Origin: an uncultured Clostridia bacterium
Lineage (GTDB): Bacteria; Bacillota; Clostridia; Christensenellales; CAG-917
Assembly: GCA_947625145.1 (NCBI GenBank)
Contig: CANQNC010000004.1
Location: 11,107 to 75,106, forward strand
DNA length: 64,000 nucleotides
Reading direction: 5' to 3'
Shown here: positions 1 to 13,635 of the stretch, one piece after another
Layout: each line of letters begins with the position of its first letter
How positions within the stretch are numbered: the stretch's first letter is position 1
The notes under the pieces: generated by a model
What the model was told of the DNA's origin: nothing
Seen by the model: only the letters and a program-made list of their open reading frames with translations
Databases searched by the model: none
Position numbers and translations under genes: made by a program

Positions 1-322
1 AGGATATCACCACCATGACGCACGTCAGCCAAAAGTCCCTGCTCGGCTTGCCCTTGCCGCTTCTCACCGAAAAGCTGTAAACGCCGAAAAACAGGACGAG
101 CATCATCGCAAACGCGCCCACAAATCTTCCCGTCGTGACCGCCGCGCTCGCCACGGTAAACGCTTGCAGGAAGTCTCCCACCATAAACAGCGAAAACAGC
201 GTCATCGCAAACGTCGCGACGACGATCCCGACAAAACATTGCCCAAAGCAAGCGAAAAACTTTTTCCTTGCGATCAGCTTTTGTTTTTCGACCGTTGATA
301 AGTCTTTGATATCGTCAATCAT
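1..322 (-). CDS. partial CDS (N-terminus only, runs off the window start): multi-pass membrane protein, possibly the 7TM-HD (PgpH/YqfF-type) gene that follows phoH in Firmicutes
   Basis: ATG at 320-322 (minus) lies 7 nt after GGAG and the frame stays open to position 1. Translation is MIDDIKDLSTVEKQKLIARKKFF followed by hydrophobic helices (FVGIVVATFAMTLFSLFMV, FVGAFAMMLVLFFGV). It is absent from the ORF track because it is truncated. The product name comes from synteny only. Confidence 0.45.
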   Translation of the reverse strand, partial: MIDDIKDLSTVEKQKLIARKKFFACFGQCFVGIVVATFAMTLFSLFMVGDFLQAFTVASAAVTTGRFVGAFAMMLVLFFGVYSFSVRSGKGKPSRDFWLTCVMVVIS

Positions 323-355
323 ATTTCATCTCCAAACGATCACGTGTTGGTCAAC

Positions 356-1324
356 CTATTGTTTTCCGTTTTGCTCCGCTTCCTCGTAGCGCTCGTACGC
401 CTCGACAATGTGCGTGACCAGCTCGTTTCTGATCACGTCCTTCGAGGTCAAAAGATCTATCTCGACGCCCTTGACGTCGCGGAGCACCTCAATTGCGTTC
501 ACAAGCCCGCTCGTCACGTTGCGGGGAAGGTCGATTTGACTTATGTCCCCTGTGACGACCATACGGCAGTTTTCCCCCATGCGGGTGAGGAACATCTTCA
601 TCTGCTCACGAGTGGTGTTTTGCGCCTCATCGAGTATGACGAAGCAGTTCGACAACGTGCGCCCGCGCATATACGCAAGCGGCGCGATCTCTATAACCCC
701 GCGCTCGATAAAGCGCAGATACGTATCCTCTCCCAAAAACTCTTTGAGCGCGTCGAACAGCGGCCTGAGATACGGGTCCACCTTTTCGCTGAGGTCCCCG
801 GGCAAAAAGCCGAGTTTCTCCCCCGCTTCCACGGCGGGACGGGTGAGTATGATCCTGCCGACCTCGTTGTTTTTCAGCGCTCCCACCGCAAGCGCGACCG
901 CAAGATAGGTCTTGCCCGTGCCCGCGGGGCCTACGCCAAACACAATGCCGTTTCGTCTTATCGCGTCGATATAGCGCTTTTGCCCGAATGTTTTCGGGCG
1001 CACTATCTTGCCGCGCACGGTGATCGCGACCGTGTTCATCAGTTCGGACAGATCCAACTCTTTGCCCGCCTTGGCGCAGTCTATCGCCATGCCGACTTGG
1101 GACGGGATCAGATCCCCCTTGTCCGCCATGCCCTCGAGTGCGTCCAGCGCGCGCATGGCTCCCTCCACGGCATGTGAATCGCCGCTTATTTTGACGCTGT
1201 TGCCCGTGGCGAAAATGTCCACGTCAAAAGATTGCGTAATGCGGGAAATGTTCTCGTCCAATTCCCCGAAAACGGCAAGCATGACGTCATAGTTTTCAAA
1301 ATGTTTTTCCCTTGTTGTTTTCAT
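356..1324 (-). CDS. phoH: PhoH-family ATPase (PhoH/YbeZ-like)
   Basis: 322-aa ORF with Walker A GPAGTGKTYLAVALAV and the PhoH-type core ILTRPAVEAGEKLGFLPGDL...DEAQNTT. GGAGGTG lies upstream. It overlaps the yqfD 3' end by 29 nt. Confidence 0.9.
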   Translation of the reverse strand: MKTTREKHFENYDVMLAVFGELDENISRITQSFDVDIFATGNSVKISGDSHAVEGAMRALDALEGMADKGDLIPSQVGMAIDCAKAGKELDLSELMNTVAITVRGKIVRPKTFGQKRYIDAIRRNGIVFGVGPAGTGKTYLAVALAVGALKNNEVGRIILTRPAVEAGEKLGFLPGDLSEKVDPYLRPLFDALKEFLGEDTYLRFIERGVIEIAPLAYMRGRTLSNCFVILDEAQNTTREQMKMFLTRMGENCRMVVTGDISQIDLPRNVTSGLVNAIEVLRDVKGVEIDLLTSKDVIRNELVTHIVEAYERYEEAEQNGKQ

Positions 1325-2576
1325 CGGATATGAGCACCTCCGCCTCGACAGTCACGCTTACGTTCCTGCCCACGGCGTCCCTCTGTACGGATCTGTACAC
1401 ATTTTTTATGCTCGCGGGTTCCTCGAGCTCGGAGAGTATCTCGGCATAGACGATGGAGCACAGCTGTTCGTCCGTCATGACGTTTTGCGTCTCTACGGCG
1501 TCTAGCTGCCGAAATTCGTACGTGTACGCGACAAACGGAAGCAAAAAGCCGAAATCGCTTATCCTGACCTCAAGTTCGTAGGTTTCAAACGGGCTTTTGG
1601 GAGGCTTCGGCGCCTTGCCGAACATCCCCAGCTTCACGATACGCTTCGTCTTGCCGTAGACCTTTTCCACCGAGACGTCCGCTAAGTAGGCGGTGCGCTT
1701 CAACAGCACGGTGCCGTAAACGCTTCCCTTCGCCTCCACCTCTATGCGCGAATCGCCGTACATGACGTAGCCGTCTATCAGCAGATCCCCCGCCTTCACG
1801 ACGTCGCCGTACTTGACCTGCGCCGTGCCGCCCTCCACAATCACTCGCGTGACTGTGGCAAGCCTTGTCGCGCTCACGCCCGAGCCGCGTATGTCGGCGA
1901 AATGCTCGCGCGCAAGCTCGGACTTTATCCTGACCTCCACTCGCGTGCCCCGCCTTTGGACCTGCGCAAAGGCTATCCCGTCCAGCCCCAATATCCTTTC
2001 GGACAGGACATCGGGCTTTATCTCGGGGACGAACGCGCCCTCGAACACCCCTTGCTCGGATAGTATTGCGTGTATCTTTGCATTTAATGCGCCGTCCGCC
2101 TCCACGCCGTCAAGGCTTAGGACGCTTATGTCCGTCACGAAGCAAGGGAACAGCGCGATCATCAACACGCCTGCCGCGATGCCCGCGATCAACCCCGCGC
2201 GCACGAGCAAGCGCGCAAGGCGCGGGAGCGCGCCCGACACTCGTATTATTTTATAATCATAGCATAAATTGTCGAGCAGCGCAACAATCTTTGGGCAAAC
2301 TTTTGACGGAATATAAAAACGGATCCCGTCCGAAGCCGTCCTCACGTCGCTGACAACGCAGATCTTCATGATCGCGCCAAGCGCCCGCACTCCGTTTTTG
2401 CCCTTGACAAAGATCTCGGTCTTGCCCAGCTTGCTCGCAAAAACAGACATTCTATTCGGACGTTTTTTGCGGATAGGCGAGATTTTGTCCTTCCTCTCCT
2501 TCTGCGGCTTTTTGACCCTGCGCTCGACTGTGAAAGCGCCAAAATCGTTTTCAGTCCTTTTTTTGCCCGTCAACAA
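1296..2576 (-). CDS. yqfD: sporulation protein YqfD
   Basis: 426-aa ORF with a TTG start 7 nt after AAGGAGA (alternative ATG at 2450). It has a central TM segment LIAGIAAGVLMIALFPCFV and a YqfD-like N-terminal region (GKTEIFVKGKNGVRALGAIMK). The yqfC-yqfD-phoH order matches Bacillus/Clostridium. Confidence 0.8.
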   Translation of the reverse strand: MLTGKKRTENDFGAFTVERRVKKPQKERKDKISPIRKKRPNRMSVFASKLGKTEIFVKGKNGVRALGAIMKICVVSDVRTASDGIRFYIPSKVCPKIVALLDNLCYDYKIIRVSGALPRLARLLVRAGLIAGIAAGVLMIALFPCFVTDISVLSLDGVEADGALNAKIHAILSEQGVFEGAFVPEIKPDVLSERILGLDGIAFAQVQRRGTRVEVRIKSELAREHFADIRGSGVSATRLATVTRVIVEGGTAQVKYGDVVKAGDLLIDGYVMYGDSRIEVEAKGSVYGTVLLKRTAYLADVSVEKVYGKTKRIVKLGMFGKAPKPPKSPFETYELEVRISDFGFLLPFVAYTYEFRQLDAVETQNVMTDEQLCSIVYAEILSELEEPASIKNVYRSVQRDAVGRNVSVTVEAEVLISDENNKGKTF

Positions 2577-2820
2577 ATTCCAATCTCCTTATATCGCCCT
2601 TGACATAGATGTCCGAGCCGCCGATCTCAAGTATCCGTAGCCCCTCGCCCGCAACGCTCAGCGCGCCGCCCGCGATCTTCAACCTGACCTCCTCCCCCGT
2701 GGACAACATCACGTTTTTGACGCCGCTGACGGCAAGTTTGTCCCGCGCAAGCATGGTCAGCGCAAACGGCAACAGCTCCTGCCCCACCTTCAACTTCCTT
2801 TTCAATTCGTCCTTGAACAT
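2551..2820 (-). CDS. yqfC: YabP/YqfC-family sporulation protein
   Basis: YabP-type core LAVSGVKNVMLSTGEEVRLKIAGGALSVAGEGLRILEIGGSDIYVKGDIRRLEF. The start is uncertain: ATG 2820 has no clear RBS and the ORF is open up to TTG 2907. Confidence 0.65.
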   Translation of the reverse strand: MFKDELKRKLKVGQELLPFALTMLARDKLAVSGVKNVMLSTGEEVRLKIAGGALSVAGEGLRILEIGGSDIYVKGDIRRLEFVDGQKKD

Positions 2821-2951
2821 GTTAAAGCATATGAGCCCGCTCCCCCAATCATTCCCCGCCCGCTCTCCACCAAAATGCGTCTGCCCTCCCCTAAATCCCT
2901 CCCGCAATCAAGGGAAAAATCCACAGGAGAAATACTCAAATCACCTTAGGG

Positions 2952-2989
2952 ACAAAAAAAATTCCAACCTATCAGTTCAAGATAGGTTG
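2952..2989 (-). terminator. intrinsic terminator (minus-strand reading)
   Basis: 9-bp stem CAACCTATC (2965-2973) pairs with GATAGGTTG (2981-2989). On the minus strand it is followed by a run of 8 T (plus-strand A8 at 2953-2960). Confidence 0.6.
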
Positions 2990-3020
2990 AAATCGGTGTC
3001 AAACACGAAAGATGCCCGAG

Positions 3021-3268
3021 AAGGTTCGTAGGCAAGGTCAGCGGCCTGCCGATCGGGTCCCACAAAATTGTGAAATGATTTTGTGGGTGAAATTGCGAAA
3101 CGAGCGAGTTTACTCGCAAAAGTGGAGCGTCAGTCCGGGAACAGGAGTTCGCCACGCAAAGCGTGGGCAACATATAATGTTGCAATCTTGACGGGACAAT
3201 CTCTCGTGTCTTACGCGAGAGATGACCATGAAAAAAGCACCTAAACAGGTGCTTTTTTCATGGTGTCT
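3021..3268 (+). ncRNA. unclassified structured RNA-like element, copy 1 (strand assignment tentative)
   Basis: Shares ordered conserved blocks with copy 2, with compensatory hairpins between them. It ends in a 16-bp hairpin CCATGAAAAAAGCACC/GGTGCTTTTTTCATGG (3226-3263). Three G.U pairs exist only on the + strand. No family was recognised. Confidence 0.35.
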
Positions 3269-3301
3269 TACACGAAATAGCTGTAAAGCCCGCAATCCAC
3301 A

Positions 3302-3527
3302 GTCGGAGATTCGTAGGCAAGGCCAGCGGCCTGCCGTAATAGTGGAGCGTGAGTGCTTGCACTCGGTAGCGACACGTCAGTCCGGACGTCCGGAGTTCGG
3401 TTGGCAAAGCCAACTATTGTTGCATTCTGCAACAATAAAATCTCCGACGGGACAATCTCTCGTGTGCCTTACACGAGAGATGACCATGAAAAAAAGCACC
3501 TGTTTAGGTGCCTTTTTTCATGGTGTC
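3302..3527 (+). ncRNA. unclassified structured RNA-like element, copy 2 (strand assignment tentative)
   Basis: Closing helix GTCGGAGAT (3302-3310) pairs with ATCTCCGAC (3440-3448). It has the same block order as copy 1. Its terminal 17-bp hairpin (3484-3523) includes the CCA end of tRNA-Lys. Confidence 0.35.
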
Positions 3528-3596
3528 CCGTCGGAGATTCGAACTCCGGACCATCGCATTAAAAGTGCGGTGCTCTACCGACTGAGCTAACGAGAC
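3521..3596 (-). tRNA. tRNA-Lys (anticodon UUU)
   Basis: Reverse complement is GTCTCGTTAGCTCAGTCGGTAGAGCACCGCACTTTTAATGCG...GGAGTTCGAATCTCCGACGGGACACCA. It folds as a cloverleaf with anticodon loop CTTTTAA and an encoded CCA. Confidence 0.9.
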
Positions 3597-3598
3597 GG

Positions 3599-3673
3599 TG
3601 GCAGGGGTAGCTGGATTTGAACCAACGAATGACGGAATCAAAATCCGTTGCCTTACCGCTTGGCGATACCCCT
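3599..3673 (-). tRNA. tRNA-Gln (anticodon UUG)
   Basis: Reverse complement is AGGGGTATCGCCAAGCGGTAAGGCAACGGATTTTGATTCCG...GGTTCAAATCCAGCTACCCCTGCCA. The anticodon is TTG and CCA is encoded. Confidence 0.9.
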
Positions 3674-3756
3674 TCGAGGCGCATTTGCGCAACGTTGCGT
3701 ACGCTCTTGCGAGACATACTTTGTATGACCGCGACCAATGATCGCAAGGTTTCAAA

Positions 3757-3834
3757 TGGGGTGAATAGTGGGACTCGAACCCACGGCCTCCAGGGCCACA
3801 ACCTGGCACGCTAACCAACTGCGCTATATCCACC
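3757..3834 (-). tRNA. tRNA-His (anticodon GUG)
   Basis: Reverse complement is GGTGGATATAGCGCAGTTGGTTAGCGTGCCAGGTTGTGGCCCTGG...GGGTTCGAGTCCCACTATTCACCCCA. An extra 5' G(-1) sits opposite discriminator C, which is typical of tRNA-His. Confidence 0.9.
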
Positions 3835-3837
3835 ATA

Positions 3838-3914
3838 TGGCGAGCCTGAAGGGATTCGAACCCCCGACACACGGCTTAGAAGGCCGTTGCTCTATCCTGC
3901 TGAGCTACAGACTC
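3838..3914 (-). tRNA. tRNA-Arg (anticodon UCU)
   Basis: Reverse complement is GAGTCTGTAGCTCAGCAGGATAGAGCAACGGCCTTCTAAGCCG...GGGTTCGAATCCCTTCAGGCTCGCCA. The anticodon is TCT. Confidence 0.9.
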
Positions 3915-3942
3915 ACTGTTGTCGAGCGAAACCTATCTAGGT

Positions 3943-4016
3943 TGGAGCGGGTGATGGGAATCGGACCCACGCAATCAGCTTGGAAGGCTGACATTCTACC
4001 ATTGAACTACACCCGC
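3943..4016 (-). tRNA. tRNA-Gly (anticodon UCC)
   Basis: Reverse complement is GCGGGTGTAGTTCAATGGTAGAATGTCAGCCTTCCAAGCTG...GGGTCCGATTCCCATCACCCGCTCCA. The anticodon is TCC. Confidence 0.9.
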
Positions 4017-4068
4017 GCGCTCGCTCGACCTGCCGGCGACGAAAGTCAATACCATTCGGCGCTTGAAA

Positions 4069-4097
4069 ATATTAACATATTAAGCAAATCATGTCAA
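4069..4097 (-). promoter_or_regulatory. sigma-A-type promoter of the tRNA operon
   Basis: On the minus strand: TTGACA (4097-4092), 17-nt spacer, TAATAT (4074-4069). It lies about 50 nt upstream of tRNA-Gly. Confidence 0.6.
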
Positions 4098-4217
4098 GAA
4101 ATTTTGACAACTTTGCTCAATTAGCCCGACGACTTTGCTTGCGCCCCGCTTTTGCGAGTTTATGGCGCCGTCGCGCACGAGGCTTTAAGCGTCACGACTC
4201 CGAAAACTCTCCAAGAC

Positions 4218-5690
4218 TCACTCGCCCGCCGAACGATCGAGAAGCTGTTGTTTGAGCGTCCAGAGCTTTTTGGACAAGTCCACCTTGTAGTCCTGCGCAT
4301 TGACCACTCTGCGATATTCGGGGAAGAATTGCGCAACGCATTGATCCTCGTACTCCGCTATCTGTTTGAGCGTGGGCAGGTCGTAGACCAACTTGCCGTC
4401 CTTGAAGATGGGCGTCATAAGCTCTTTCGTCTCAAAATCCACAAACGTCATCCTCTTGTAGGTCAGCTCGGGATGGAAGATGGTGAGCGGCTTGGAGGGG
4501 TCTATCGTCTCGTCCTCGAGGCATATCAGGTCCGCCTGCGCCATGCCGCGCTTGAAAATGCGCACGATCTTTTTTACCCCGGGATTGGTGGTCTTTTCGT
4601 GGCTGTTGGACACCTTTATCTTGGGCACGAGCACGCCGTTCTCTTCCATGGCGCACATCTTGTACACGCCGCCGAGAGAGGCGTTTTTGTAGCTTGTGAT
4701 CAGCTTTGTGCCTATGCCGTAGACGTCTATCTTCGCCTCCTGCGCGTGCAGGGACAGCAGAATGTCCTCGTCAAGGTCGTTTGTGGCGAAGATGAGGCAA
4801 TCGTCGTGCCCCGCGGCGTCAAGCATTTTCCTTGCCTCGCGACTGAGATAGGCGAGGTCTCCGCTGTCCAGCCTTATGCCGATGGGCTTATGTCCCGCCG
4901 CCTTGAGCTTGTCAAACACCTTTATTGCGTTTGGAACGCCGCTTTTCAGCGTGTTGTAGGTGTCCACCAGCAGCAGACAGTTGTCGGGATATATCTCGGC
5001 GTACTTTTCAAACGCTTCAAGCTCGCTGTCAAAGGACATGACCCAGCTGTGCGAGTGCGTGCCCGTGACGGGTATGCCGAACAGCTTGCCCGCAACCACG
5101 TTGGACGTCGTGCGACAGCCGCCGATATAAGCCGCCCTTGCGCCGTAAATTCCCGCGTCCGCGCCCTGCGCCCTGCGCAAGCCGAATTCGCTGATCTTGT
5201 TTTTTGTGCACTCTCTGAGCCTTGCCGCCTTTGTCGCGATCAGCGTCTGATGGTTGATGAATGTCAAAAGCGCGGTCTCCACAAGTTGAGCCTCCCAAAG
5301 CGGCGCCGAGACCGTGACGATTGGCTCGCCGGGGAAGATCATGGTCCCTTCGGGCACTGCCTTGATGTCCCCCGTGAAGCGGAAGCCCTCGAGAGCGCGG
5401 AAAAATTCCTCATCGAAGATGCCGAGAGACCTCAGATATTCTATGTCGCTCTTGTCGAAATGCAGGTTCAAAATGTAGTCTATCGCCTGCTCCAGCCCCG
5501 CGGCGATCGCGTAGCTGTAACCGCCCGCGCCCCTGTAAAACACGTCGAAAACCGCTCTTTTTTTCCACAGCCCGCACTTGAGATAGCCGTTCATCATGGT
5601 CAGCTGATAAAGGTCGGTCAAAAGGGTGAGATTGTTTGTTTTGACGCGCTCGGTCAGATAGGTGTTTTGCGCAATATCCTTGTTTTCCAT
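4218..5690 (-). CDS. pncB: nicotinate phosphoribosyltransferase
   Basis: 490-aa ORF with the NAPRTase N-terminal signature LLTDLYQLTMMNGY and a full-length family layout. Confidence 0.9.
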   Translation of the reverse strand: MENKDIAQNTYLTERVKTNNLTLLTDLYQLTMMNGYLKCGLWKKRAVFDVFYRGAGGYSYAIAAGLEQAIDYILNLHFDKSDIEYLRSLGIFDEEFFRALEGFRFTGDIKAVPEGTMIFPGEPIVTVSAPLWEAQLVETALLTFINHQTLIATKAARLRECTKNKISEFGLRRAQGADAGIYGARAAYIGGCRTTSNVVAGKLFGIPVTGTHSHSWVMSFDSELEAFEKYAEIYPDNCLLLVDTYNTLKSGVPNAIKVFDKLKAAGHKPIGIRLDSGDLAYLSREARKMLDAAGHDDCLIFATNDLDEDILLSLHAQEAKIDVYGIGTKLITSYKNASLGGVYKMCAMEENGVLVPKIKVSNSHEKTTNPGVKKIVRIFKRGMAQADLICLEDETIDPSKPLTIFHPELTYKRMTFVDFETKELMTPIFKDGKLVYDLPTLKQIAEYEDQCVAQFFPEYRRVVNAQDYKVDLSKKLWTLKQQLLDRSAGE

Positions 5691-5691
5691 T

Positions 5692-6837
5692 TTACGCCTC
5701 TGCTGTATCCAAAGTATATTCGTCCTGTTTGACGATGGTTCTGAATCTCTTTTTATAATGTTTTGGAACGCGATAAAAATTCAACTCGTCGAAATCCACC
5801 GCAACATACTCTCCCTTGCCGTAGAGAAAGCGGAGAGGGTTCCTCGACTCCTTGACTACGGTTTGGCCGTCCTTTGAAACTTCCTTTGTCTTGACGGCGT
5901 ACAGCTTGCCCACGAAGCCGTAGTTTGAAATGTCGAAGTCGCTGAGCGCCGCGCCCTCGAGTTTGCTCGCGCTCTTAAGGCCGCGCACTCTGTCGTAGGA
6001 CATCTTGCTGACCCTGTAAAGCACGTAGACCGCCCCCACAATGACAGACAGCACGACCATGACGACACAACCCGCCATCGCGCCCTTGACGTTTGCGGCG
6101 TCCAGCCTGAGATATTCCAGCCAAGTGCGCCCGAGGAAGTACCAGAACAGATAGAAAAGCAACATCACGCCGGGATATTTTTTCTGTTTGCCCTTCATCC
6201 AGAAGGTCAGGCAGAAGGCAAGCCCTATCGCGTTCCACACCATCTCGTAAAAGAAGGTCGCGCAATACCAGCCCTCGCCGCCGAACAGATCCCACCTCGA
6301 AACGCCCGACGGATCGTCGATGTAGACCGCAAACGGGAAGCGTTGGAAGCGAGGATCCGTGATCTGAAATCCGAACGCCTCCTGATTGACGAAATTGCCC
6401 AATCTGCCCACGATCTGCCCGACGAGAAGGGGCACGATCACAAGGTCCGCAACGCTCAAAAAGTTGGTCTGTTTGCGGTGGCGCAACGTGAAAAAGATCA
6501 CGCCCAACGCGCCGCCCGCGATGCCGCCTATGATGGTGATGCCGCCGTCCCATATAGCGATAGCGTTGACAAAGGCGTCCCAACTGTCTATGGGGAAGAA
6601 TTCGCTTGTGCGGGATATGAGATAAAACACCCTCGCAAACACGATCGCAAAGGGGATGACCCACAAAAACAGCTCTATCCCGTCGTCCGAGGCAAGATTG
6701 ATTTTTTTTGCCTGACTGCAAGCGTACACCAGCCCGATCAGCATGCCGCACACGATGATGACGCCGTACCAACGCACGCTGAGTCCGCCGATTTGAAACG
6801 CCACCTTGGGATCGCTTGCGATTGCCAAAATATCCAT
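5692..6837 (-). CDS. lgt: prolipoprotein diacylglyceryl transferase with a C-terminal extension of roughly 100 aa
   Basis: Lgt motifs GLSVRWYGVIIVCGMLIG and GRLGNFVNQEAFG. ATG 6837 lies 6 nt after GAGGAG (the track start at 6843 is a TTG). Confidence 0.88.
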   Translation of the reverse strand: MDILAIASDPKVAFQIGGLSVRWYGVIIVCGMLIGLVYACSQAKKINLASDDGIELFLWVIPFAIVFARVFYLISRTSEFFPIDSWDAFVNAIAIWDGGITIIGGIAGGALGVIFFTLRHRKQTNFLSVADLVIVPLLVGQIVGRLGNFVNQEAFGFQITDPRFQRFPFAVYIDDPSGVSRWDLFGGEGWYCATFFYEMVWNAIGLAFCLTFWMKGKQKKYPGVMLLFYLFWYFLGRTWLEYLRLDAANVKGAMAGCVVMVVLSVIVGAVYVLYRVSKMSYDRVRGLKSASKLEGAALSDFDISNYGFVGKLYAVKTKEVSKDGQTVVKESRNPLRFLYGKGEYVAVDFDELNFYRVPKHYKKRFRTIVKQDEYTLDTAEA

Positions 6838-6847
6838 ATTCAACTCC

Positions 6848-8083
6848 TCAAATCAAAAGTTTGCACGCGCCGCTGTCGCGGATAGCAAGTTTGAACACGT
6901 TTTCCTCGCCGAACATGACATTCAAGGCGTTGTGGACTCCGCTTGCGGCGGGGTCGGCGAACGTCAAGATCGTGCCCGCAAATCCCCCGCCGTGCACTCT
7001 GTACGCAAGCACGCCATCTATCCTCTTCACGCTGTCGAGCGCGTTTTCGAGGTTGTGATTTTGGCATGCGGGAGAATAGGTGTTTTGCAGTTTGTATCTT
7101 GAACTCAGCCCCGACTCGTTGACAAGAGAGAGGAAACCCTCCTTGTCGCCCTCGTCTATCATTGCCACCGCGCGTTCCACCCTTGCGTTTTCCTCGAAGA
7201 AGTGCTCCGCCCTCAAAAATGCGCGAGGCTCGACAAGAGGGCGCACGCTCTCCTTTTCCGCCTCCCATTTTTCGGGAGATATCTCGTGCAAAAGTTTCGC
7301 TCCGAACTTTGAGGCGACCGACCTCATTTCAAGCGGGATCGCGGCGTAGTCGTCCGTGAGATTGGAGTGATCCCCTCCCGTCGCAATGACAAAGATGTCA
7401 AGATCGAACTTCCAATCCGCTTTTTTGACCGCGGGTTCTTCGAGGTCCGCGAAATCTATCATATTCACGCCACCGAGGGCGATCGCGCTTTGATCCATCA
7501 ATCCGCTCGGCTTGCCGAAGTAGGTGTTTTCGGCATATTGCGACGCTTTCGCCTTGAAAATGGGGCTCAACTCGCCGTCGTTGTACATGACGTTGAGTAT
7601 CTCCGCGATCACAAGTTCGAACGAGCTCGACGAGGAAACTCCCGAGCCTTTCGGGACAGAGGACGTCATACATGCGCAAAAACCGCCCACTCTCTTCCCC
7701 GAACGCGCAAAATAGTCCACGACGCCCTTGATGAGCGCCGTCGAGGTGCCTATCTCCGAAACGGAAAAGACGGGCGCGGCGCAGTCCACCCTGAGCATGG
7801 GATAGCCCTTGGATTTGACCTCTATCACTCCGTCCTCTCGTTTTGAGACAGCGGCGAGCGTGTCCACGTTGATAGCGGCGCAAAGCACCTTGCCGCCGTT
7901 GTGATCCGTGTGATTGCCTATCATCTCTATGCGGCCGGGCGAGGAGTAAAACTCGCGCGCGTCGGATCCGAACACCTCGCGGTGCATGGCGACAAGTTCC
8001 TCAAACCTGTCCAACTGAGCGGCGCCGTCCGTGCCGTAAATGTCCTTGCAGATCCCGTCCAAACCGCGTTTGTCTATGGGCAT
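6848..8083 (-). CDS. galK: galactokinase
   Basis: 411-aa ORF with the galactokinase signature GRIEMIGNHTDHNGG and the GHMP kinase motif PKGSGVSSSSSF. Confidence 0.9.
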   Translation of the reverse strand: MPIDKRGLDGICKDIYGTDGAAQLDRFEELVAMHREVFGSDAREFYSSPGRIEMIGNHTDHNGGKVLCAAINVDTLAAVSKREDGVIEVKSKGYPMLRVDCAAPVFSVSEIGTSTALIKGVVDYFARSGKRVGGFCACMTSSVPKGSGVSSSSSFELVIAEILNVMYNDGELSPIFKAKASQYAENTYFGKPSGLMDQSAIALGGVNMIDFADLEEPAVKKADWKFDLDIFVIATGGDHSNLTDDYAAIPLEMRSVASKFGAKLLHEISPEKWEAEKESVRPLVEPRAFLRAEHFFEENARVERAVAMIDEGDKEGFLSLVNESGLSSRYKLQNTYSPACQNHNLENALDSVKRIDGVLAYRVHGGGFAGTILTFADPAASGVHNALNVMFGEENVFKLAIRDSGACKLLI

Positions 8084-8159
8084 AACGATTGCCTCCCGCT
8101 TCCGCGCGCTCGCGTCTGCGCGAAAGTTGAAAAAATTTGATATGTTTTATATCTATTTA

Positions 8160-8188
8160 GTTATACAATATCCCCGAAAATTTGTCAA
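8160..8188 (-). promoter_or_regulatory. candidate galK promoter
   Basis: On the minus strand: TTGACA (8188-8183), 17-nt spacer, TATAAC (8165-8160). Confidence 0.5.
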
Positions 8189-8221
8189 CTGCGGGCAATT
8201 TGTTTTTTCCGCCGCAACCGC

Positions 8222-8250
8222 TTGCAAATTGAGTCGGGGTTTGCTATAAT
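8222..8250 (+). promoter_or_regulatory. candidate galT promoter
   Basis: TTGCAA (8222-8227), 17-nt spacer, TATAAT (8245-8250). It is divergent from the galK promoter. Confidence 0.55.
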
Positions 8251-8308
8251 ACAATCGTTTATTATCCCGTGGCGGTTTTGCCGCATTGGGGCGATTGTCG
8301 GAGTTGTT

Positions 8309-9868
8309 ATGGCAAGGATTTCTTATGAAACGCAAGCGAAGCAAAACATAAAAAAACTTATCGACCATGCCGAAAAAAAGCTGTATCTGCAAGATTTTGA
8401 CGCGATATATGTGCAAAACGCCTTGCTCGAGCTTTTCAAATTGACCGAGCCGTACGACGGCGACATAAAGGAATACGACCTTTACGCCGTGCTCACTCAA
8501 CTTTCGGCATACGCGGTCCGCATCAAACTCATTGAGGAAAACGACCGCCCCAACTTCGAGACAAAGTTGATGGGCATGGTCATGCCCGCTCCGTCAAAAG
8601 TCGTGGAATTGTTTGACGACACCGCAAGCTACAGCGGGATAGAAAAGGCGTGCGACATGCTGTTCAAGCTGGGCGAGGACAGCACATATCTCAGGCGCCC
8701 CGACCTCGACAAAAACATAGTTTGGCAGCACGACGCGCCAAGAGGACGGATCGTCGTCACCATCAACCTGTCCAAGCCCGAAAAAACTCCCGAGCAAGTG
8801 CGCCTTGCGAAGTTGGCAAAGGGCGGATATCCAAAATGTATGCTTTGCGCGGAAAACGTCGGCTGGACGGGCAACGCGGCAAAGCCCGCGCGGCAGACTC
8901 TGCGCACCATACCCTTCGAACTTGACGGCGAGCCTTGGTTCGCGCAATTTTCGCCGTATCAATATTTCGAGCAACATATCATAGCCGTAAGCGAAGAGCA
9001 TCGCCCCATGTGCGTGTCCGAGGGCACTTTCCGCCGCATGCTCGACTTTTTGGACATGTTCCCGCACTATTTCATAGGCTCGAACGCTGCCCTGCCCATC
9101 GTCGGCGGCTCCATCCTAGCGCACGATCACTATCAAGGCGGCAAAAAGGTGTTGCCCGTGTTTGAAAGAGGCGCGCGCAAGCACTTCCGCATGGCGGGAT
9201 TGCCGAACGTCCACATCTCAAAGGTGGATTGGTACAATTCCGTCGTCCGCGTAGAGTCAAAGGACAGGCAACAACTGCTGAAAGCGGTGGAAGCCTTCCG
9301 CAAGGCGTGGGACAATTACAGCGACGAAAGCGCAAACATAATCGCCTCCACAACTTCGGACGGCGAGGTCGTCCCTCACAACGCCATCACTCCCATTGCG
9401 TCCATCAATTCGGACGGCGAATATCAATTCAACCTCATCCTGCGCAACAACCGCACGGACGAAGCGCATCCCTACGGCATCTTCCATCCCTCGCAGGAGC
9501 TTCACAACATAAAGCAAGAGGCGATAGGCATCATTGAGGTCATGGGGCTGTTTATCCTGCCGGGCAGACTGGCTTCGGAAGCGGCGCAGATCAAGGATAT
9601 CCTCACGGGCAAAACTCCCCTCGACTTCAAGGCGCTTGCGGACGACTCTCATCCCCTGCACAGGCACCTCGGCATGATCACTCAGCTTGTCGTGGACAAC
9701 GGCACCGCTTGCAGCGAAAAAAAGGCGGGAGACGCAGTAACGGACTATATCAACCTCGCATGCGAAAAGATCCTAGACACCACCGCCGTGTTCAAAAACA
9801 CCGACGAGGGACAAGCCGCGTTCGACCGCTTCATCACAAGCGTCACGGAGGGGAAACAGGCGATCTGA
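8309..9868 (+). CDS. galT: UDP-glucose--hexose-1-phosphate uridylyltransferase (long, Firmicute-type GalT)
   Basis: ATG 8309 follows GGAG. The roughly 519-aa product starts MARISYETQAKQNIKKLIDHAEKKLYL and matches the type-2 GalT layout (GYPKCMLCAENVG...ILAHDHYQGG). Confidence 0.85.
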   Translation: MARISYETQAKQNIKKLIDHAEKKLYLQDFDAIYVQNALLELFKLTEPYDGDIKEYDLYAVLTQLSAYAVRIKLIEENDRPNFETKLMGMVMPAPSKVVELFDDTASYSGIEKACDMLFKLGEDSTYLRRPDLDKNIVWQHDAPRGRIVVTINLSKPEKTPEQVRLAKLAKGGYPKCMLCAENVGWTGNAAKPARQTLRTIPFELDGEPWFAQFSPYQYFEQHIIAVSEEHRPMCVSEGTFRRMLDFLDMFPHYFIGSNAALPIVGGSILAHDHYQGGKKVLPVFERGARKHFRMAGLPNVHISKVDWYNSVVRVESKDRQQLLKAVEAFRKAWDNYSDESANIIASTTSDGEVVPHNAITPIASINSDGEYQFNLILRNNRTDEAHPYGIFHPSQELHNIKQEAIGIIEVMGLFILPGRLASEAAQIKDILTGKTPLDFKALADDSHPLHRHLGMITQLVVDNGTACSEKKAGDAVTDYINLACEKILDTTAVFKNTDEGQAAFDRFITSVTEGKQAI

Positions 9869-10187
9869 TTGGTCGGATCATGTGACGAAGCCCAAAACGC
9901 TTGACAGTGCTCGGACAGAACGGAGTTTGCAACAAACTTAAAGCACTTGGCAAGTGTTATGATATATCGAATTTAGGCGCGGAGTTTGGAACGCCGGACA
10001 AATATTCGGATATATCGGATTTTGCAACAAAGCTAGGACGTTTGGCAAATGTAAGTATTTGAATAAAACGGATTTGGGCATTTGGGAACGGAATTCGGAA
10101 TAAACATTCGGAAACATTGGGTTTATAGCAGATATCGCGTCAAAAACGCTTCATAAATATTTGGAATTTCAAAAGCTCACAAAAATC

Positions 10188-10220
10188 AAAACGGTTTGGC
10201 AAAAAGCCAAACCGTTTATT
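10188..10220. terminator. bidirectional intrinsic terminator between convergent galT and hup
   Basis: AAACGGTTTGGC-AAAAA-GCCAAACCGTTT, a perfect 12-bp stem flanked by A/T runs on both sides. Confidence 0.7.
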
Positions 10221-10256
10221 ATGCCCGCCCTGATTGGGCGTTTGATGCGTTTTGAG

Positions 10257-10529
10257 TTATTTGAACAGTTCTTTGAAGCTCTTTCCGAACTTAAGAACGG
10301 GTGTTCTGGACGCGGCAATAGTGATGGGCTGCTTTGTGAGGGGATTGAAGCCCTGTCTCTCAGCCTTCTCTTTGATTTCGTAGGTGCCAAAGTTTGCGAT
10401 CGCCACTTTGTCGCCTGCTTTGAGTGCGTCTGTCACTGTTGCAACATAAGCCTCTACTGCTGCGGATGCATCCTTCAGTGAAAGGTCAGCTCTCTTTGCT
10501 ACTTCTCTTATAAGATCTTGTTTGTTCAT
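10257..10529 (-). CDS. hup: DNA-binding protein HU
   Basis: 90-aa ORF MNKQDLIREVAKRADLSLKDASAAVEAYV...FGTYEIKEKAERQGFNPLTKQPITIAASRTPVLKFGK, preceded by the RBS TAGGAGG. Confidence 0.93.
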   Translation of the reverse strand: MNKQDLIREVAKRADLSLKDASAAVEAYVATVTDALKAGDKVAIANFGTYEIKEKAERQGFNPLTKQPITIAASRTPVLKFGKSFKELFK

Positions 10530-10557
10530 ATTAGCCTCCTATTAGCTTTCTTACGAC

Positions 10558-10586
10558 ATTATAGAATAATTTGTCGAAAAACGCAA
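10558..10586 (-). promoter_or_regulatory. candidate hup promoter
   Basis: On the minus strand: TTGCGT (10586-10581), 17-nt spacer, TATAAT (10563-10558). Confidence 0.5.
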
Positions 10587-10647
10587 GCCTTATTTTGATA
10601 ATATATCAGAGTATTTGCATTTTCTTTATATTTTACACCCCAAACAG

Positions 10648-10818
10648 GGTAAAACCGCCTGTACGAGCGAATAGCTGCGTCAGCTATATTTCCAAAAGTT
10701 AAGATAGAGTGCCTCCCCGGGGTCCCCATCAAAATGCGTAGCGTTTTCATGGGGTGGGATTAGTCTTGTCGTTCAGGGGGCGCTTCCTTGCTCTTCATCC
10801 CGTACAGGCGGTTTTACC
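10648..10818. repeat. 171-bp MITE-like unit with perfect 18-bp terminal inverted repeats
   Basis: GGTAAAACCGCCTGTACG (10648-10665) and CGTACAGGCGGTTTTACC (10801-10818). The interior holds hairpins ATAGCTG-CGT-CAGCTAT and CCCCATCAAAA...TTTTCATGGGG. Confidence 0.5.
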
Positions 10819-11186
10819 TTTCACTATTATATTTTACGTTGTCATCTCGTCCTCTCCTCTCGCGCTGTTGAGCAATATGTATTGTCATCAACTCAATTTA
10901 ATATGATAGCTTGATATGATAGCTTGTGCGAGACATCTTCAGGGTCCCCATCAAAACATGCAATGTTTTCATGGGCGGGATTGGGCGCCTCGGGCCCTCT
11001 TTCCTTGCTCTTCATCTCAATATCGCCGTTTTGCACATAATCCTTATTTGCATATTTTGTAATATATATAGTAAAACTTTATGTTGATTGAAAAAATCAA
11101 TACCAAGCCACCAACAAACAGTATATGTGCTGCGCAAATCACAAAATAAAAAGTACATTGCCCGTACGAGACAAACAAAAAAACCT

Positions 11187-11418
11187 CTATTCACCCAAAA
11201 TCACAAAAGCATATAAAGTAAAACAGCAATATTTATACGCTAGGCTAGGAAAAAGTCAACTTCACAATAGTGCGAGCGGAAAGGATACTATGTGTACCAA
11301 TCATTTGATAAAGAAATGTAAAACCGTCTGTAAGGGATGAAAGACAAGGAAACAGCTATTCGCCCAAAATCACAAAAATATATTAAGTAAAACCGCAATA
11401 TTTGGATGCTAGGCTAGG
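11187..11418. repeat. two 63-nt direct repeats (11187-11249 and 11356-11418), members of the same repeat family
   Basis: CTATTC(A/G)CCCAAAATCACAAAA...AAGTAAAAC(A/C)GCAATATTT...GCTAGGCTAGG. About 55 of 63 positions are identical by hand alignment. The period is 169 bp. Confidence 0.6.
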
Positions 11419-11520
11419 AAACAGCCCTATCACGAGTCGCCCAATGTACATGAGGTACATGACGGCGAGGGATAGGGCTGTTGACAACACATAGCGCCAA
11501 ATAGTGCGGTTTTACCCGTT

Positions 11521-13635
11521 TTACGCTTTCTTTAAGATTTCTTTAAGGCGCAGATCCACCCTATGCTTCTCGTCTATCTTGATGACCTTGACGAGCACGA
11601 TATCGCCGACATTTACGACGTCGGTGACCTTTTCCACACGCTTGTCGGAGAGCTTGGAAATGTGGATCATTCCGTCCTTGCCGGGGGCAAAGTTGACGTT
11701 GGCGCCAAACTGCCCTTTGTCGTTTTCCATGATCTTGGTGACGATGCCCTCGTAGACGTCGCCGACCTCCACGTCGCGGACGATGGTTTCGATGATGGAG
11801 CGCGCCTTTTTGATCGCGGCGTCGTCGTTGGACGCCACAAACACCACGCCGTCGTCGTTGATGTCGATCTTGACGCCCGTGTCCTCGACGATCTTGTTGA
11901 TTGTCTTGCCGCCCTTGCCGATGATGTCGCCGATCTTGTCGGGATCCACCTCAAAGGACACGATCTTGGGCGCCCACTTGCTCAGTTCGGGACGGGGAGC
12001 GGAGATGACAGCGTTCATCTTTTTCAGTATCTCCAACCTGCCCAGCCTTGCCTGCTCGAGCGCGCGAGTGAGGATAGCCTCGTCTATGCCCTTGATCTTG
12101 ATGTCCATCTGTATCGCGGTGATGCCGTTTTCGGTGCCCGCCACTTTGAAGTCCATGTCGCCGAGGAAGTCCTCAAGCCCCTGAATGTCCGTGAGCACAG
12201 CGACCTTGCCTTCCGCCTCGTTTTTGATAAGTCCCATTGCTATGCCAGCGACGGGAGCCTTGATGGGCACGCCCGCGTCCATAAGCGCAAGCGTACTGCC
12301 GCACACCGAAGCCTGTGACGTGGAGCCGTTTGAGCTGAGGATGTCCGAAACGGTGCGAATGGCATAGGGGAATTCCTCTTCAGAGGGAAGCACGGGTTCG
12401 AGCGCGCGCTCTGCGAGAGCGCCATGCCCTATCTCGCGTCTGCCCGGGCTCTTGAGGGATTTTGCCTCGCCTGTGGAATATCCGGGCATGTTGTATTGAT
12501 GCATATACCTCTTGTAATAGTCGTCGTCAAGGCCTTCGAGACGTTGCGCCTCGGAGATCGTGCCGAGCGTGCAAGTGGTGAGCGCTTGGGTCTGACCTCT
12601 TGTGAACACCGCGCTGCCGTGGACTCTCGGGAGCATGCCGACCTCTATCCAAATAGGACGGATCTCGGTGAGCGCTCTGCCGTCGGGACGGACGCCCTTA
12701 TCAAGGATCTTCGCGCGCACTTTCTCTTTTTTGAGATAATAGAGGCTGTCGAGGATGAATTTGACCTTTTTCTGCTCGTCGTTCCACTCGTCGGCGAAAT
12801 GCGCGAGCACTTCCTCGTTGAGCGCGTCCTCTCTTGCCTCGCGCTCATAGCGGTCGAACGCCTCGAGCACAAAGTCCATCTTTTTGTCCGCGTACTCGCG
12901 CACTGCGGCGTCGATGAACTCGGGGACATGCTCGAGCTCGATATCCTGCTTCGGTTTGCCGACCTCTTTTTGGATGTCCTCAATGAAGGCGACGATCTTT
13001 TTGATCTCCTCATGTCCGAACATGATCGCGCCGAGCATTTCCTGCTCGGAGATGACGTCCGCGCCCGCTTCGACCATCATGATGGCGTCCTTTGTGCCGC
13101 TGAGGTTGAGCGTCAGGCGGGATTTTGCGCGCTGTTCGCTGTCGGGATTGATGACGTACTCGCCGTCCACAAGCCCCACTACGACCGAACCCGTAGGCCC
13201 TGCCCACGGAATGTCCGAAATGCTGAGCGCGATGGACGAGCCTATCATGCCGAACACTTCGGGCGGAATGTTTGTGTCAACCGACAACACGGTCGCAATG
13301 ACGGTGACGTCGTTGTAAAGCCCCTTGGGGAAGAGAGGACGGATGGGGCGATCGATAAGCCTTGACGTAAGGATGGCTTTGTCGCTTGCCCTGCCCTCGC
13401 GCTTCTTGAAGCCGCCGGGGATCTTGCCGATCGCGTACATTTTTTCCTCGTAATCCACGCTCAACGGGAAAAAGTCCATGCCCTCGCGGGGAGCCTTGCT
13501 CATCGTTGCGTTGACCATGACAACGGTGTCTCCGCAACGGACCACGCACGAACCGTTTGCCTGCGAGCAGTACGCGCCGATCTCAACGATCAGCTCTCTG
13601 CCGCCGATCGTAGTTTTGAAAATCTTTCTTTCCAT
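11521..13635 (-). CDS. pnp: polyribonucleotide nucleotidyltransferase (PNPase)
   Basis: 704-aa ORF with two RNase PH domains plus KH (GDIIGKGGKTINKI) and S1 (VGDVYEGIVTKI) domains. It lies downstream of rpsO. Confidence 0.95.
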   Translation of the reverse strand: MERKIFKTTIGGRELIVEIGAYCSQANGSCVVRCGDTVVMVNATMSKAPREGMDFFPLSVDYEEKMYAIGKIPGGFKKREGRASDKAILTSRLIDRPIRPLFPKGLYNDVTVIATVLSVDTNIPPEVFGMIGSSIALSISDIPWAGPTGSVVVGLVDGEYVINPDSEQRAKSRLTLNLSGTKDAIMMVEAGADVISEQEMLGAIMFGHEEIKKIVAFIEDIQKEVGKPKQDIELEHVPEFIDAAVREYADKKMDFVLEAFDRYEREAREDALNEEVLAHFADEWNDEQKKVKFILDSLYYLKKEKVRAKILDKGVRPDGRALTEIRPIWIEVGMLPRVHGSAVFTRGQTQALTTCTLGTISEAQRLEGLDDDYYKRYMHQYNMPGYSTGEAKSLKSPGRREIGHGALAERALEPVLPSEEEFPYAIRTVSDILSSNGSTSQASVCGSTLALMDAGVPIKAPVAGIAMGLIKNEAEGKVAVLTDIQGLEDFLGDMDFKVAGTENGITAIQMDIKIKGIDEAILTRALEQARLGRLEILKKMNAVISAPRPELSKWAPKIVSFEVDPDKIGDIIGKGGKTINKIVEDTGVKIDINDDGVVFVASNDDAAIKKARSIIETIVRDVEVGDVYEGIVTKIMENDKGQFGANVNFAPGKDGMIHISKLSDKRVEKVTDVVNVGDIVLVKVIKIDEKHRVDLRLKEILKKA

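Follow-up and report, generated by a model that had tools for sequence, protein, structure and literature searches.

Tandem folded units at the T-loop of a tRNA-Lys(UUU) gene in an uncultured Clostridia bacterium, read as probable cargo-less miniature integrative elements

The stretch of DNA analysed here, called the window, comprises 64,000 nucleotides of contig CANQNC010000004.1 from an uncultured Clostridia bacterium. In this window a tRNA Gly-Arg-His-Gln-Lys operon lies on the - strand with tRNA-Lys(UUU) as its last gene, and the 3' end of that gene is adjoined by an array of two tandem units, which an earlier note had described as structured, RNA-like elements. Both units are present where they had been placed. 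The shared block TCGTAGGCAAGGYCAGCGGCCTGCCG occurs exactly twice in the 64 kb, at 3026-3051 and 3311-3336, with matches in 0 of 100 shuffles, and the shared block GACGGGACAATCTCTCGTG also has exactly two copies (3190-3208 and 3446-3464). The terminator, small-palindrome and hairpin blocks are 82-100% identical between unit 1 and unit 2, and no further copies were found within the window besides the two at tRNA-Lys. As developed below, the interval 2995-3524 is, on balance, best read as two cargo-less miniature integrative elements of ~260-285 bp each, stacked in tandem, flanked by attachment-site (att) sequences, located at the T-loop of tRNA-Lys(UUU) and resembling cis-mobilizable elements (CIMEs). 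The feature is real, rare and previously unclassified, and a novel RNA gene is not its best-supported reading.

On the + strand, the tRNA-Lys 3' end reads GGTGTCCCGTCGGAGATTCG|AACTCCGG, with the bar at the point where identity to the units stops. Unit 2 starts with ..CCACAGTCGGAGATTCG|TAGGCAAGG and unit 1 with ..CCCGAGAAGGTTCG|TAGGCAAGG, both being preceded by a terminator and then GGTGTC. It can be observed that the 5' edge of a unit is the antisense tRNA-Lys(UUU) 3' end (GGTGTCCCGTCGGAGATTCG) running up to the T-loop, and that identity with the tRNA ends at the T-loop complement ATTCG| in all copies. The divergence lies inside the T-loop, with ATTCG|TAGG in the units versus ATTCG|AACT in the tRNA, the complement ATTCGAA of the intact gene being located at 3537-3543. 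The T arm and acceptor end are present a second time in each unit as an inverted sense copy, arranged as GTCCGGAGTTCG, two hairpins and AATCTCCGACGGGACA. Since antisense and inverted sense copies of the tRNA are held in the same unit, the closing helix (P1) represents a pairing of two tRNA-derived pieces. In unit 2, the first part of the inverted copy agrees with the tRNA end in 12/12 positions (repeat I7) and the second part in 16/16 (repeat I4). The earlier note had missed that the strands of the closing helix are copies of the tRNA-Lys 3' end, and site-specific insertion had not been considered in it; copies located at tRNA-Lys 3' ends and bounded by copies of that end are the signature of such insertion. 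Moreover, a gradient of decay runs outward, in that the tRNA is intact, displaced fragment 1 is partly decayed and carries an insertion, and fragment 0 is heavily decayed, as expected if every new insertion displaces the previous 3' end. At two homologous loci from other genomes, L003 and L005, the host tRNA-Lys ends in GGTGACCCACCGGAGATTCG and the units there begin with exactly GGTGACCCACCGGAGATTCG, so the left edge of a unit tracks its own host tRNA.

Between these ends lies a conserved module of ~150 nt with helices in the order P1, P2, P4, P5, P3, H1 and H2. Folding of each unit far exceeds that of shuffled sequence (z = -8.9 for unit 1 and -10.8 for unit 2). The compensated helices that had been pointed out between the two units hold on inspection, namely the closing helix AAGGTT/AATCTT versus GTCGGAGATT/AATCTCCGAC, the hairpin CCACGC/GCGTGG versus GTTGGC/GCCAAC (H1) and the hairpin GCAACAT/ATGTTGC versus TATTGTTGC/GCAACAATA (H2), and they are also kept in homologs of other genomes. 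RNAalifold, applied independently to the six full copies, predicts P1, P2, P5, P3, H1 and H2, with 13 of 39 pairs compensated. The structural test used a hand-made alignment of 8 copies and an explicit structure of 8 helices and 45 pairs; here 97.4% of 308 cells pair, compared with 34-42% when the partners are slid by 1-3 columns, and both sides have changed in 21 of the 45 pairs, values reached by 0 of 500 shuffles. Four sequence types of H1 and six of H2 are seen among the copies, each a perfect stem in an unchanged position; compensated changes also affect P4, P5 and, over its inner 7 bp, P1. Outer P1 decays. The selected fold with compensatory changes claimed earlier is thus supported by covariation across 8 copies. 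Two details of that claim changed. The shared block AGTGGAGCGT is not positionally homologous, being assigned by alignment with the other copies to the P4 5' strand in copy 2 and the P4 3' strand in copy 1. Furthermore, of the hairpins called private to one copy, those at 3093-3119 and 3351-3364 are one covarying helix, P5, and only the hairpin at 3059-3087 is restricted to copy 1.

The junctions TAGGCAAGGCCAGCGGCCTGCCGTA, CGTCAGTCC, GGAGTTCG and AATCT are almost invariant. P1 pairs GGAGATT(CG) with AATCTCC and acceptor bases, P3 pairs CGTCAGTCC with GGAGTTCG imperfectly, and in the + strand fold P1 and P3 together re-form a duplex that copies the T arm and acceptor end of tRNA-Lys. Within the T-loop sequence, the insertion of H1 and H2 falls between G57 and A58, and the P2-P4-P5 domain is inserted exactly at the point where unit and tRNA diverge. 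The fold is selected and, in keeping with the earlier note, matches no Rfam family: in a scan of window positions 1-12000 at E<=1 only five tRNAs pass. Sub-threshold Rfam matches near the units, none of them starting before 3171, cover H2, the small palindrome and the terminator with 23-30 bits against cut-offs of 47-55. A resemblance of CACTCGGTAG in copy 2 (repeat I17) to a D-loop was set aside, as it is not kept in other copies. The positions of all parts are collected in Table 1.

Table 1. Features of the array and the adjoining tRNA gene, in window coordinates
Feature	Position	Strand	Basis or remark
Hairpin term0, CCAACCTATC-AGTTCAA-GATAGGTTG family	2960..2994	.	Terminator-like site left of the array; the family also flanks units in L001, L002 and L004
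Oldest displaced tRNA-Lys 3' fragment (fragment 0), GGTGTC...CCCGAGAAGGTTCG	2995..3028	-	Direct repeats D1, D10 with the tRNA end; heavily decayed; left att-type junction of unit 1
Unit 1 folded module	3021..3198	+	Fold and covariation
Unit 1 P1 5' strand	3021-3026		
Unit 1 P2	3031-3050		
Unit 1 private hairpin	3059-3087		
Unit 1 P5	3104-3117		
Unit 1 P3	3128-3151		
Unit 1 H1	3152-3166		
Unit 1 H2	3167-3183		
Unit 1 P1 3' strand	3184-3198		Decayed sense copy of the tRNA-Lys end
Small palindromic module ATCTCTCGTG-loop-CGCGAGAGAT	3199..3223	.	Inverted repeat I13; recurs in L001, L004, L005
Bidirectional terminator term1, 18-bp perfect stem	3225..3264	.	Inverted repeat I2 and fold
Displaced tRNA-Lys 3' fragment 1	3262..3313	-	Repeats D1, D9, D10; 29-nt insertion splits GGTGTC from CCACAGTCGGAGATTCG; partly decayed; left att-type junction of unit 2
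Unit 2 folded module	3302..3454	+	Fold, repeats I4, I7, I15, covariation
Unit 2 P1 5' strand	3302-3311		
Unit 2 P2	3316-3335		
Unit 2 P4/P5, with P5	3351-3364		
Unit 2 P3	3375-3399		
Unit 2 H1	3400-3414		
Unit 2 H2	3415-3437		
Unit 2 P1 3' strand	3439-3454		Exact sense copy of tRNA-Lys T-stem, acceptor and discriminator
Small palindromic module ATCTCTCGTGT-loop-ACACGAGAGAT	3455..3481	.	Inverted repeat I10
Bidirectional terminator term2, overlapping the encoded CCA end of tRNA-Lys	3483..3524	.	Inverted repeat I3 and terminator scan
tRNA-Lys(UUU), intact, CCA encoded	3521..3596	-	ARAGORN; Rfam tRNA match, 68.9 bits

Relatives of the units were found on five genome contigs from one genome-collection scan (L001-L005) and on one metagenome contig (L007), the latter with one truncated copy. 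Three of the genomes are rabbit-gut 'Lapin' metagenome-assembled genomes labelled as Acetatifactor or Clostridia, and two are bins labelled as Bacteroidaceae. Wherever the contig of a homolog extends far enough, its unit directly adjoins a Gln-Lys operon at the antisense 3' end of tRNA-Lys, and a terminator and then the tRNA end bound each homolog unit. Units are tandem in L001 and L002, a truncated unit stands before a full one in L003, and a regenerated tRNA-Lys with displaced fragments in the same orientation is present in the window and in L001-L005. The genes on the outer flank differ among genomes. In the window they are yqfC, yqfD and phoH; elsewhere they encode a Cro/C1-type HTH protein (L002), SDH_alpha (L003 and L005), a 1520-aa protein (L004) and an HTH-S24 repressor (L007), and a membrane protein is also among the outer-flank genes of related copies. 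SDH_alpha relatives at <=80% identity lack the array, and in a relative 94% identical the contig ends 63 nt past the gene. An exact look-up of YqfC returned no record.

A distant-mode blastn of 3000-3540 against phage and plasmid collections gave no match, and three DNA pattern scans of viral contigs gave nothing real, the hit in L070 being a chance match in a coding region. A metagenome scan with the pattern CGTCAGTCCGGN{3,7}GGAGTTCG returned 64 loci, 63 of which (all except L007) were rejected as chance matches in unrelated, mostly G+C-rich sequence. The pattern also matched an identical stretch (...CGTCAGTCCGGCAAG[AC]CGGAGTTCGCCAATGCG...) at L010 3847, L012 647 and L070 1163, the first two being fermentation-metagenome contigs and the third the viral contig; this is one conserved coding region, matched by chance and unrelated to the units.

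Comparison of the window with L001 bears on mobility. The subtype with H1 GTTGGC..GCCAAC and H2 TATTGTTGC..GCAACAATA adjoins the tRNA in the window and is distal in L001, the order of the CCACGC subtype being reversed relative to it. The shared GTTGGC subtype is 91% identical over 82 nt between the two loci, while the spacers of their tRNA operons are unalignable. By this comparison of sequences, the unit subtypes appear to have moved independently and to be horizontally distributed. Truncation points are internal and different in L001a, L003t and L007. In the truncated unit of L003 (L003t), ~56 codons ending ..KWVGHSTADMTEQVYTHV.. are joined directly to the initial 25 nt of a unit; a stop, a terminator and then the core come next, and this 56-aa stretch matches the C-terminal region of tyrosine recombinases that contains the catalytic Tyr. 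When the fragment was used in a tblastn search of phages, 10 of the 10 matches listed, the best of them at E = 0.04, lay within integrase or recombinase genes or in records lacking annotation; a word-based protein search with the same 56 residues gave no match. Over 18 residues the fragment shares 72% identity with the Pfam-verified Phage_integrase of locus L106, and the integrase gene of L106 likewise faces a tRNA 3' end.

In L007 (134-826 on the - strand, and 1-126), the 5'-truncated unit begins 12 nt past the stop codon of a gene for an HTH_3 and Peptidase_S24 repressor of CI/LexA type, an arrangement that suggests a prophage or an integrative and conjugative element (ICE) adjoining, or cut into, a unit. 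L097 encodes a 483-aa tyrosine integrase (793-2244), after which come two T-arm-like repeats ~100 nt apart (2551-2671) and then an SDH_alpha gene; the locus may represent a further att arrangement linked to a tRNA, with no relation to the units.

Taken together, the units are bounded by att-type sequences, carry no cargo, are stacked at the tRNA-Lys T-loop, are distributed horizontally and share a selected fold. In the mechanism proposed here, elements would have been inserted successively into the T-loop of tRNA-Lys(UUU) by site-specific recombination. Each element would supply its own copy of the tRNA 3' end together with a terminator, by which the tRNA stays intact, and the previous 3' end would be displaced outward and subsequently decay, giving the direct repeats now seen as fragments 0 and 1; the newest element would be the one adjoining the tRNA. 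Term1 is read as the terminator given to the tRNA operon by element 1. As the units themselves encode no recombinase, they would be moved by a tyrosine integrase that must work in trans or have been active earlier. The folded module would be the part of the element retained beside the distal junction. It probably serves as a cis-acting attachment-site arm in recombination and not as an RNA product, in which case the modelled T arm/acceptor duplex of P1 and P3 may form the recombination core, with H1 and H2 lying within the T-loop sequence.

That both terminators and small modules accompany the units is a separate observation. Two families of terminator hairpins are found with units across genomes, ACCTATC-NGTTCAA-GATAGGT (term0 in the window, L001, L002 and L004) and AAGCACC-loop-GGTGCTT (term1 and term2 in the window, L003 and L005), which fits elements supplying the terminator of the tRNA operon. 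The small palindromic module, ATCTCTCGTG-loop-CACGAGAGAT or, in reverse, ACGCGAGAGAT...ATCTCTCGT, is found repeatedly beside GGTGTC remnants of the tRNA end, both in the window and in L001 (2875-2925 and 3065-3150) and, on the - strand, in L004 (~745-790 and ~530-560) and L005 (~90-125). In L001 and L004 it is inserted within a displaced tRNA fragment, and it looks like a second tiny insertion module or a remnant of a related att core.

The earlier description pointed towards an RNA, and the evidence on strand and expression has to be weighed with that in mind. If each unit were a stand-alone structured non-coding RNA gene on the + strand, with its own terminator, carried at the edge of tRNA-Lys elements or left behind by them, then the strong covariation over 8 helices, the invariance of the junction sequences, a trait of many functional RNAs, and the strong terminator hairpin after each window unit would all be accounted for, and since no known family is matched, the RNA would be new. 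The strand of the G.U pairs, left undecided before, now favours the + strand: eight wobble cells are G.U on the + strand and one is A.C (G.U on the - strand), a bias of ~p = 0.04 under neutral transitions by our own arithmetic, with cells that are not fully independent. Given these 8 cells against 1, folding of the + strand as a single strand seems likely. The folding energies of the two strands, -72.2 and -68.0 kcal/mol, are uninformative in this respect, as the strands fold about equally. However, no sense-strand promoter is predicted before any of the six full units and none is consistent across copies, which agrees with the earlier statement that no promoter, here of sigma-70-like type, lies upstream in the sense direction. 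The 5' strand of P1 begins within a few bases of the T run of the upstream terminator in four copies (L002a, L002b, L003a and L005) and is merely the att duplication, and the terminator after L002a has a good T run for the opposite strand only. The three variable hairpins, with 146 Watson-Crick pairs, 3 wobble pairs and 2 mismatches, would suit palindromic DNA equally, and truncated copies are common. With no sense promoter, with truncated copies and with tRNA-Lys ends bounding the copies, the stand-alone RNA gene is considered an unlikely explanation. A cis-regulatory leader or tandem riboswitch on the - strand, serving the yqfC-yqfD-phoH operon that starts at 2822, would agree with the position of the units between the tRNA operon and the start of yqfC and with both strands folding well, yet three terminators intervene between the tRNA operon and yqfC on that strand, the + strand wobbles become A.C mismatches, and the gene on that side is unrelated in other genomes. 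This reading is highly improbable. A conventional riboswitch on the + strand had been dismissed before, and rightly, as no + strand gene lies downstream and the tRNAs there are antisense. Least credible of all is a short peptide encoded by the units. An open frame ...EIRRQGQRPAV... does cross block A in all copies, and a 122-aa open reading frame (ORF) on the + strand (3222-3590) is open over all of unit 2 and the antisense tRNA-Lys, but frames shift between homologs downstream of block A, an in-frame stop is present in L004, most copies lack a start codon, and conservation resides in helices rather than codons. No conserved ORF is found in the units, whose intervals are ~190-290 bp; coding is thereby refuted, as the earlier note had also held, and the 122-aa ORF, whose frame is not kept in homologs, is spurious.

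A different kind of alternative regards the units as functionless debris, in the form of scars and inverted duplications resulting from many rounds of integration and excision at the nearly palindromic T-arm site, with hairpins kept by quasi-palindrome template-switch correction and not by selection. Truncated copies, patchwork modules and decaying tRNA fragments would be expected of debris; the T-loop core TTCGAA forms a palindrome, as do the hairpins in nearly perfect form, and outer P1 decays freely in L002a, L003a and L004. Against this, the same 8-helix architecture with invariant junctions is found across genomes whose tRNA-operon spacers are unalignable, at least 4 types of H1 and at least 6 of H2 occupy one fixed position, compensatory changes extend to P4, P5 and inner P1, beyond simple palindromes, and neutral decay would not be expected to bias the wobble pairs to one side. 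Debris is accordingly regarded as doubtful. The preferred reading, a stack of att-flanked miniature elements, must itself be set against several observations that weigh on it. No complete unit contains or adjoins an integrase gene, and the searches of genome, metagenome, viral, phage and plasmid collections yielded no autonomous relative with the fold. Neither an empty site nor an excised circle nor a polymorphism among strains was observed, so that mobility is deduced from comparison only. The fusion in L003t could be a deletion spanning two different neighbouring elements. Known attP arms are not typically built of variable hairpins with perfect pairing, and the wobble bias suggests a single-stranded form, RNA or single-stranded DNA (ssDNA), for which a plain double-stranded attP has no need. 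The fold statistics derive from ~8 copies of related sequence in ~5 genomes, with pair counts inflated by an alignment fitted by hand to the fold, and P3, invariant and imperfect, leaves that half of the core mimic without support from covariation. With these points included, the miniature-element reading is still held to be the probable one.

The array lies between two groups of genes. On one side (356-2822, - strand) lies a sporulation-linked operon of yqfC (YabP family), yqfD and phoH, and on the other (3521-5690, - strand) the tRNA operon with the gene for nicotinate phosphoribosyltransferase, pncB. The adjacency of pncB and tRNA genes is absent from pncB relatives at 83-87% identity, where a gene of 225-233 aa is found instead. 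No integrase is present among the flanking genes examined in the window. Other known sites and elements were also compared and set aside. An origin of transfer (oriT) or single-strand origin (sso) was rejected, as no nick-site or CS-6-type motif is common to the copies (judged by eye), and a serine-recombinase reading of the H1-H2 insertion fails because the second CG is absent at the right junction. A miniature inverted-repeat transposable element or one derived from an insertion sequence does not fit, the sole copies in 64 kb being at tRNA-Lys and the flanking repeats being 17-21 nt of tRNA sequence, not a short duplication.

It should be noted why such inserts deserve attention. tRNA genes are classic docking sites of genomic islands, and the elements described there carry genes, whereas these inserts carry none; they are gene-less, ~190-290 bp long, and combine a precise covarying fold with the same tRNA in different gut Clostridia. 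Annotation pipelines would miss them because an integrase gene is required in the interval, and the spurious ORF that spans unit 2 might wrongly be annotated as a gene. If the fold is a cis-acting site, the units would represent a minimal mobile unit for T-loop-specific integrases, could reveal the use of structured or single-stranded substrates by tRNA-targeting integrases, and would offer a compact, programmable attachment module for engineering anaerobes. If it is an RNA instead, it would be a new class tied to mobile elements.

Among known systems, CIMEs are decayed ICEs or integrative and mobilizable elements (IMEs) without integration and transfer genes, and tandem accretion into ICE/IME/CIME arrays is described at tRNA-Lys in streptococci (PMC5704250). 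Like CIMEs, the units have att-type repeats from the tRNA-Lys 3' end on both sides and lack integrase and transfer genes, and like accretion arrays they are tandem, with a regenerated target gene and decayed neighbours. Regarding an origin by decay of an ICE or IME, the sole observation is the fusion of a unit start with an integrase 3' end in L003t. Unlike CIMEs, the units are short and gene-less, carry a conserved multi-helix fold and use tRNA-Lys(UUU) of gut Clostridia as target. A small architecture that recurs across genomes looks like a family of its own, not the product of random deletions. Islander defines islands by a regenerated tRNA gene and a displaced 3' fragment, with crossover subsites in the anticodon loop, the T-loop and the T-stem/acceptor junction (PMC4383910). 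The array agrees with such islands in its intact tRNA, its displaced fragments in direct orientation that match the host, a crossover subsite at the T-loop where identity ends, and tandem arrangement; it differs in an interval two orders of magnitude shorter than typical and in having no integrase inside, a feature that the Islander filter looks for, the only trace of one being the 56-aa C-terminal fragment in L003t. A T-loop/T-stem crossover subsite of tRNA-gene islands was reportedly recognized by Williams in 2002.

An attP of lambda type spans ~240 bp and consists of a P arm, a core and a P' arm. The units are of similar size and can be laid out in the same way, with a long arm of ~150 nt, a core shared with the tRNA and a short arm, the terminator; they differ in that repeated arm-type binding motifs were not identified in them, and we know of no attP arms built from covarying hairpins. 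Folded single-strand recombination sites are known from the attC sites of integrons and from the forked hairpin of CTXphi attP(+). An integron attC proper was rejected, since the boundary GGAGATTCG|TAGGCAA and its inverted partner AATCTCC fit neither of the RYYYAAC/GTTRRRY boxes on direct reading, and no link to IntI or Xer and no attI were seen with the units. The units nevertheless share with attC and CTXphi attP(+) the precedence of structure over sequence in variable stems, inverted halves of the core that pair into a duplex site, an interrupted central region and a strand bias, and like integron cassettes they are small and ORF-less, with the newest adjoining a fixed site. They differ in a multi-way junction in place of a single bulged hairpin, in a tRNA gene as target, and in an ssDNA substrate that is here only hypothetical. 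By analogy, the element might enter the duplex tRNA gene in single-stranded form through a tyrosine recombinase, and the 8-helix module would then be a new kind of folded single-strand recombination site, a reading that is attractive and to which we give a rather low probability; in a related reading, the element bears a new RNA whose first 20 nt match the target. If the module is such a folded site, these would be the first cassette-like, ORF-less elements with a tRNA gene as their fixed docking site.

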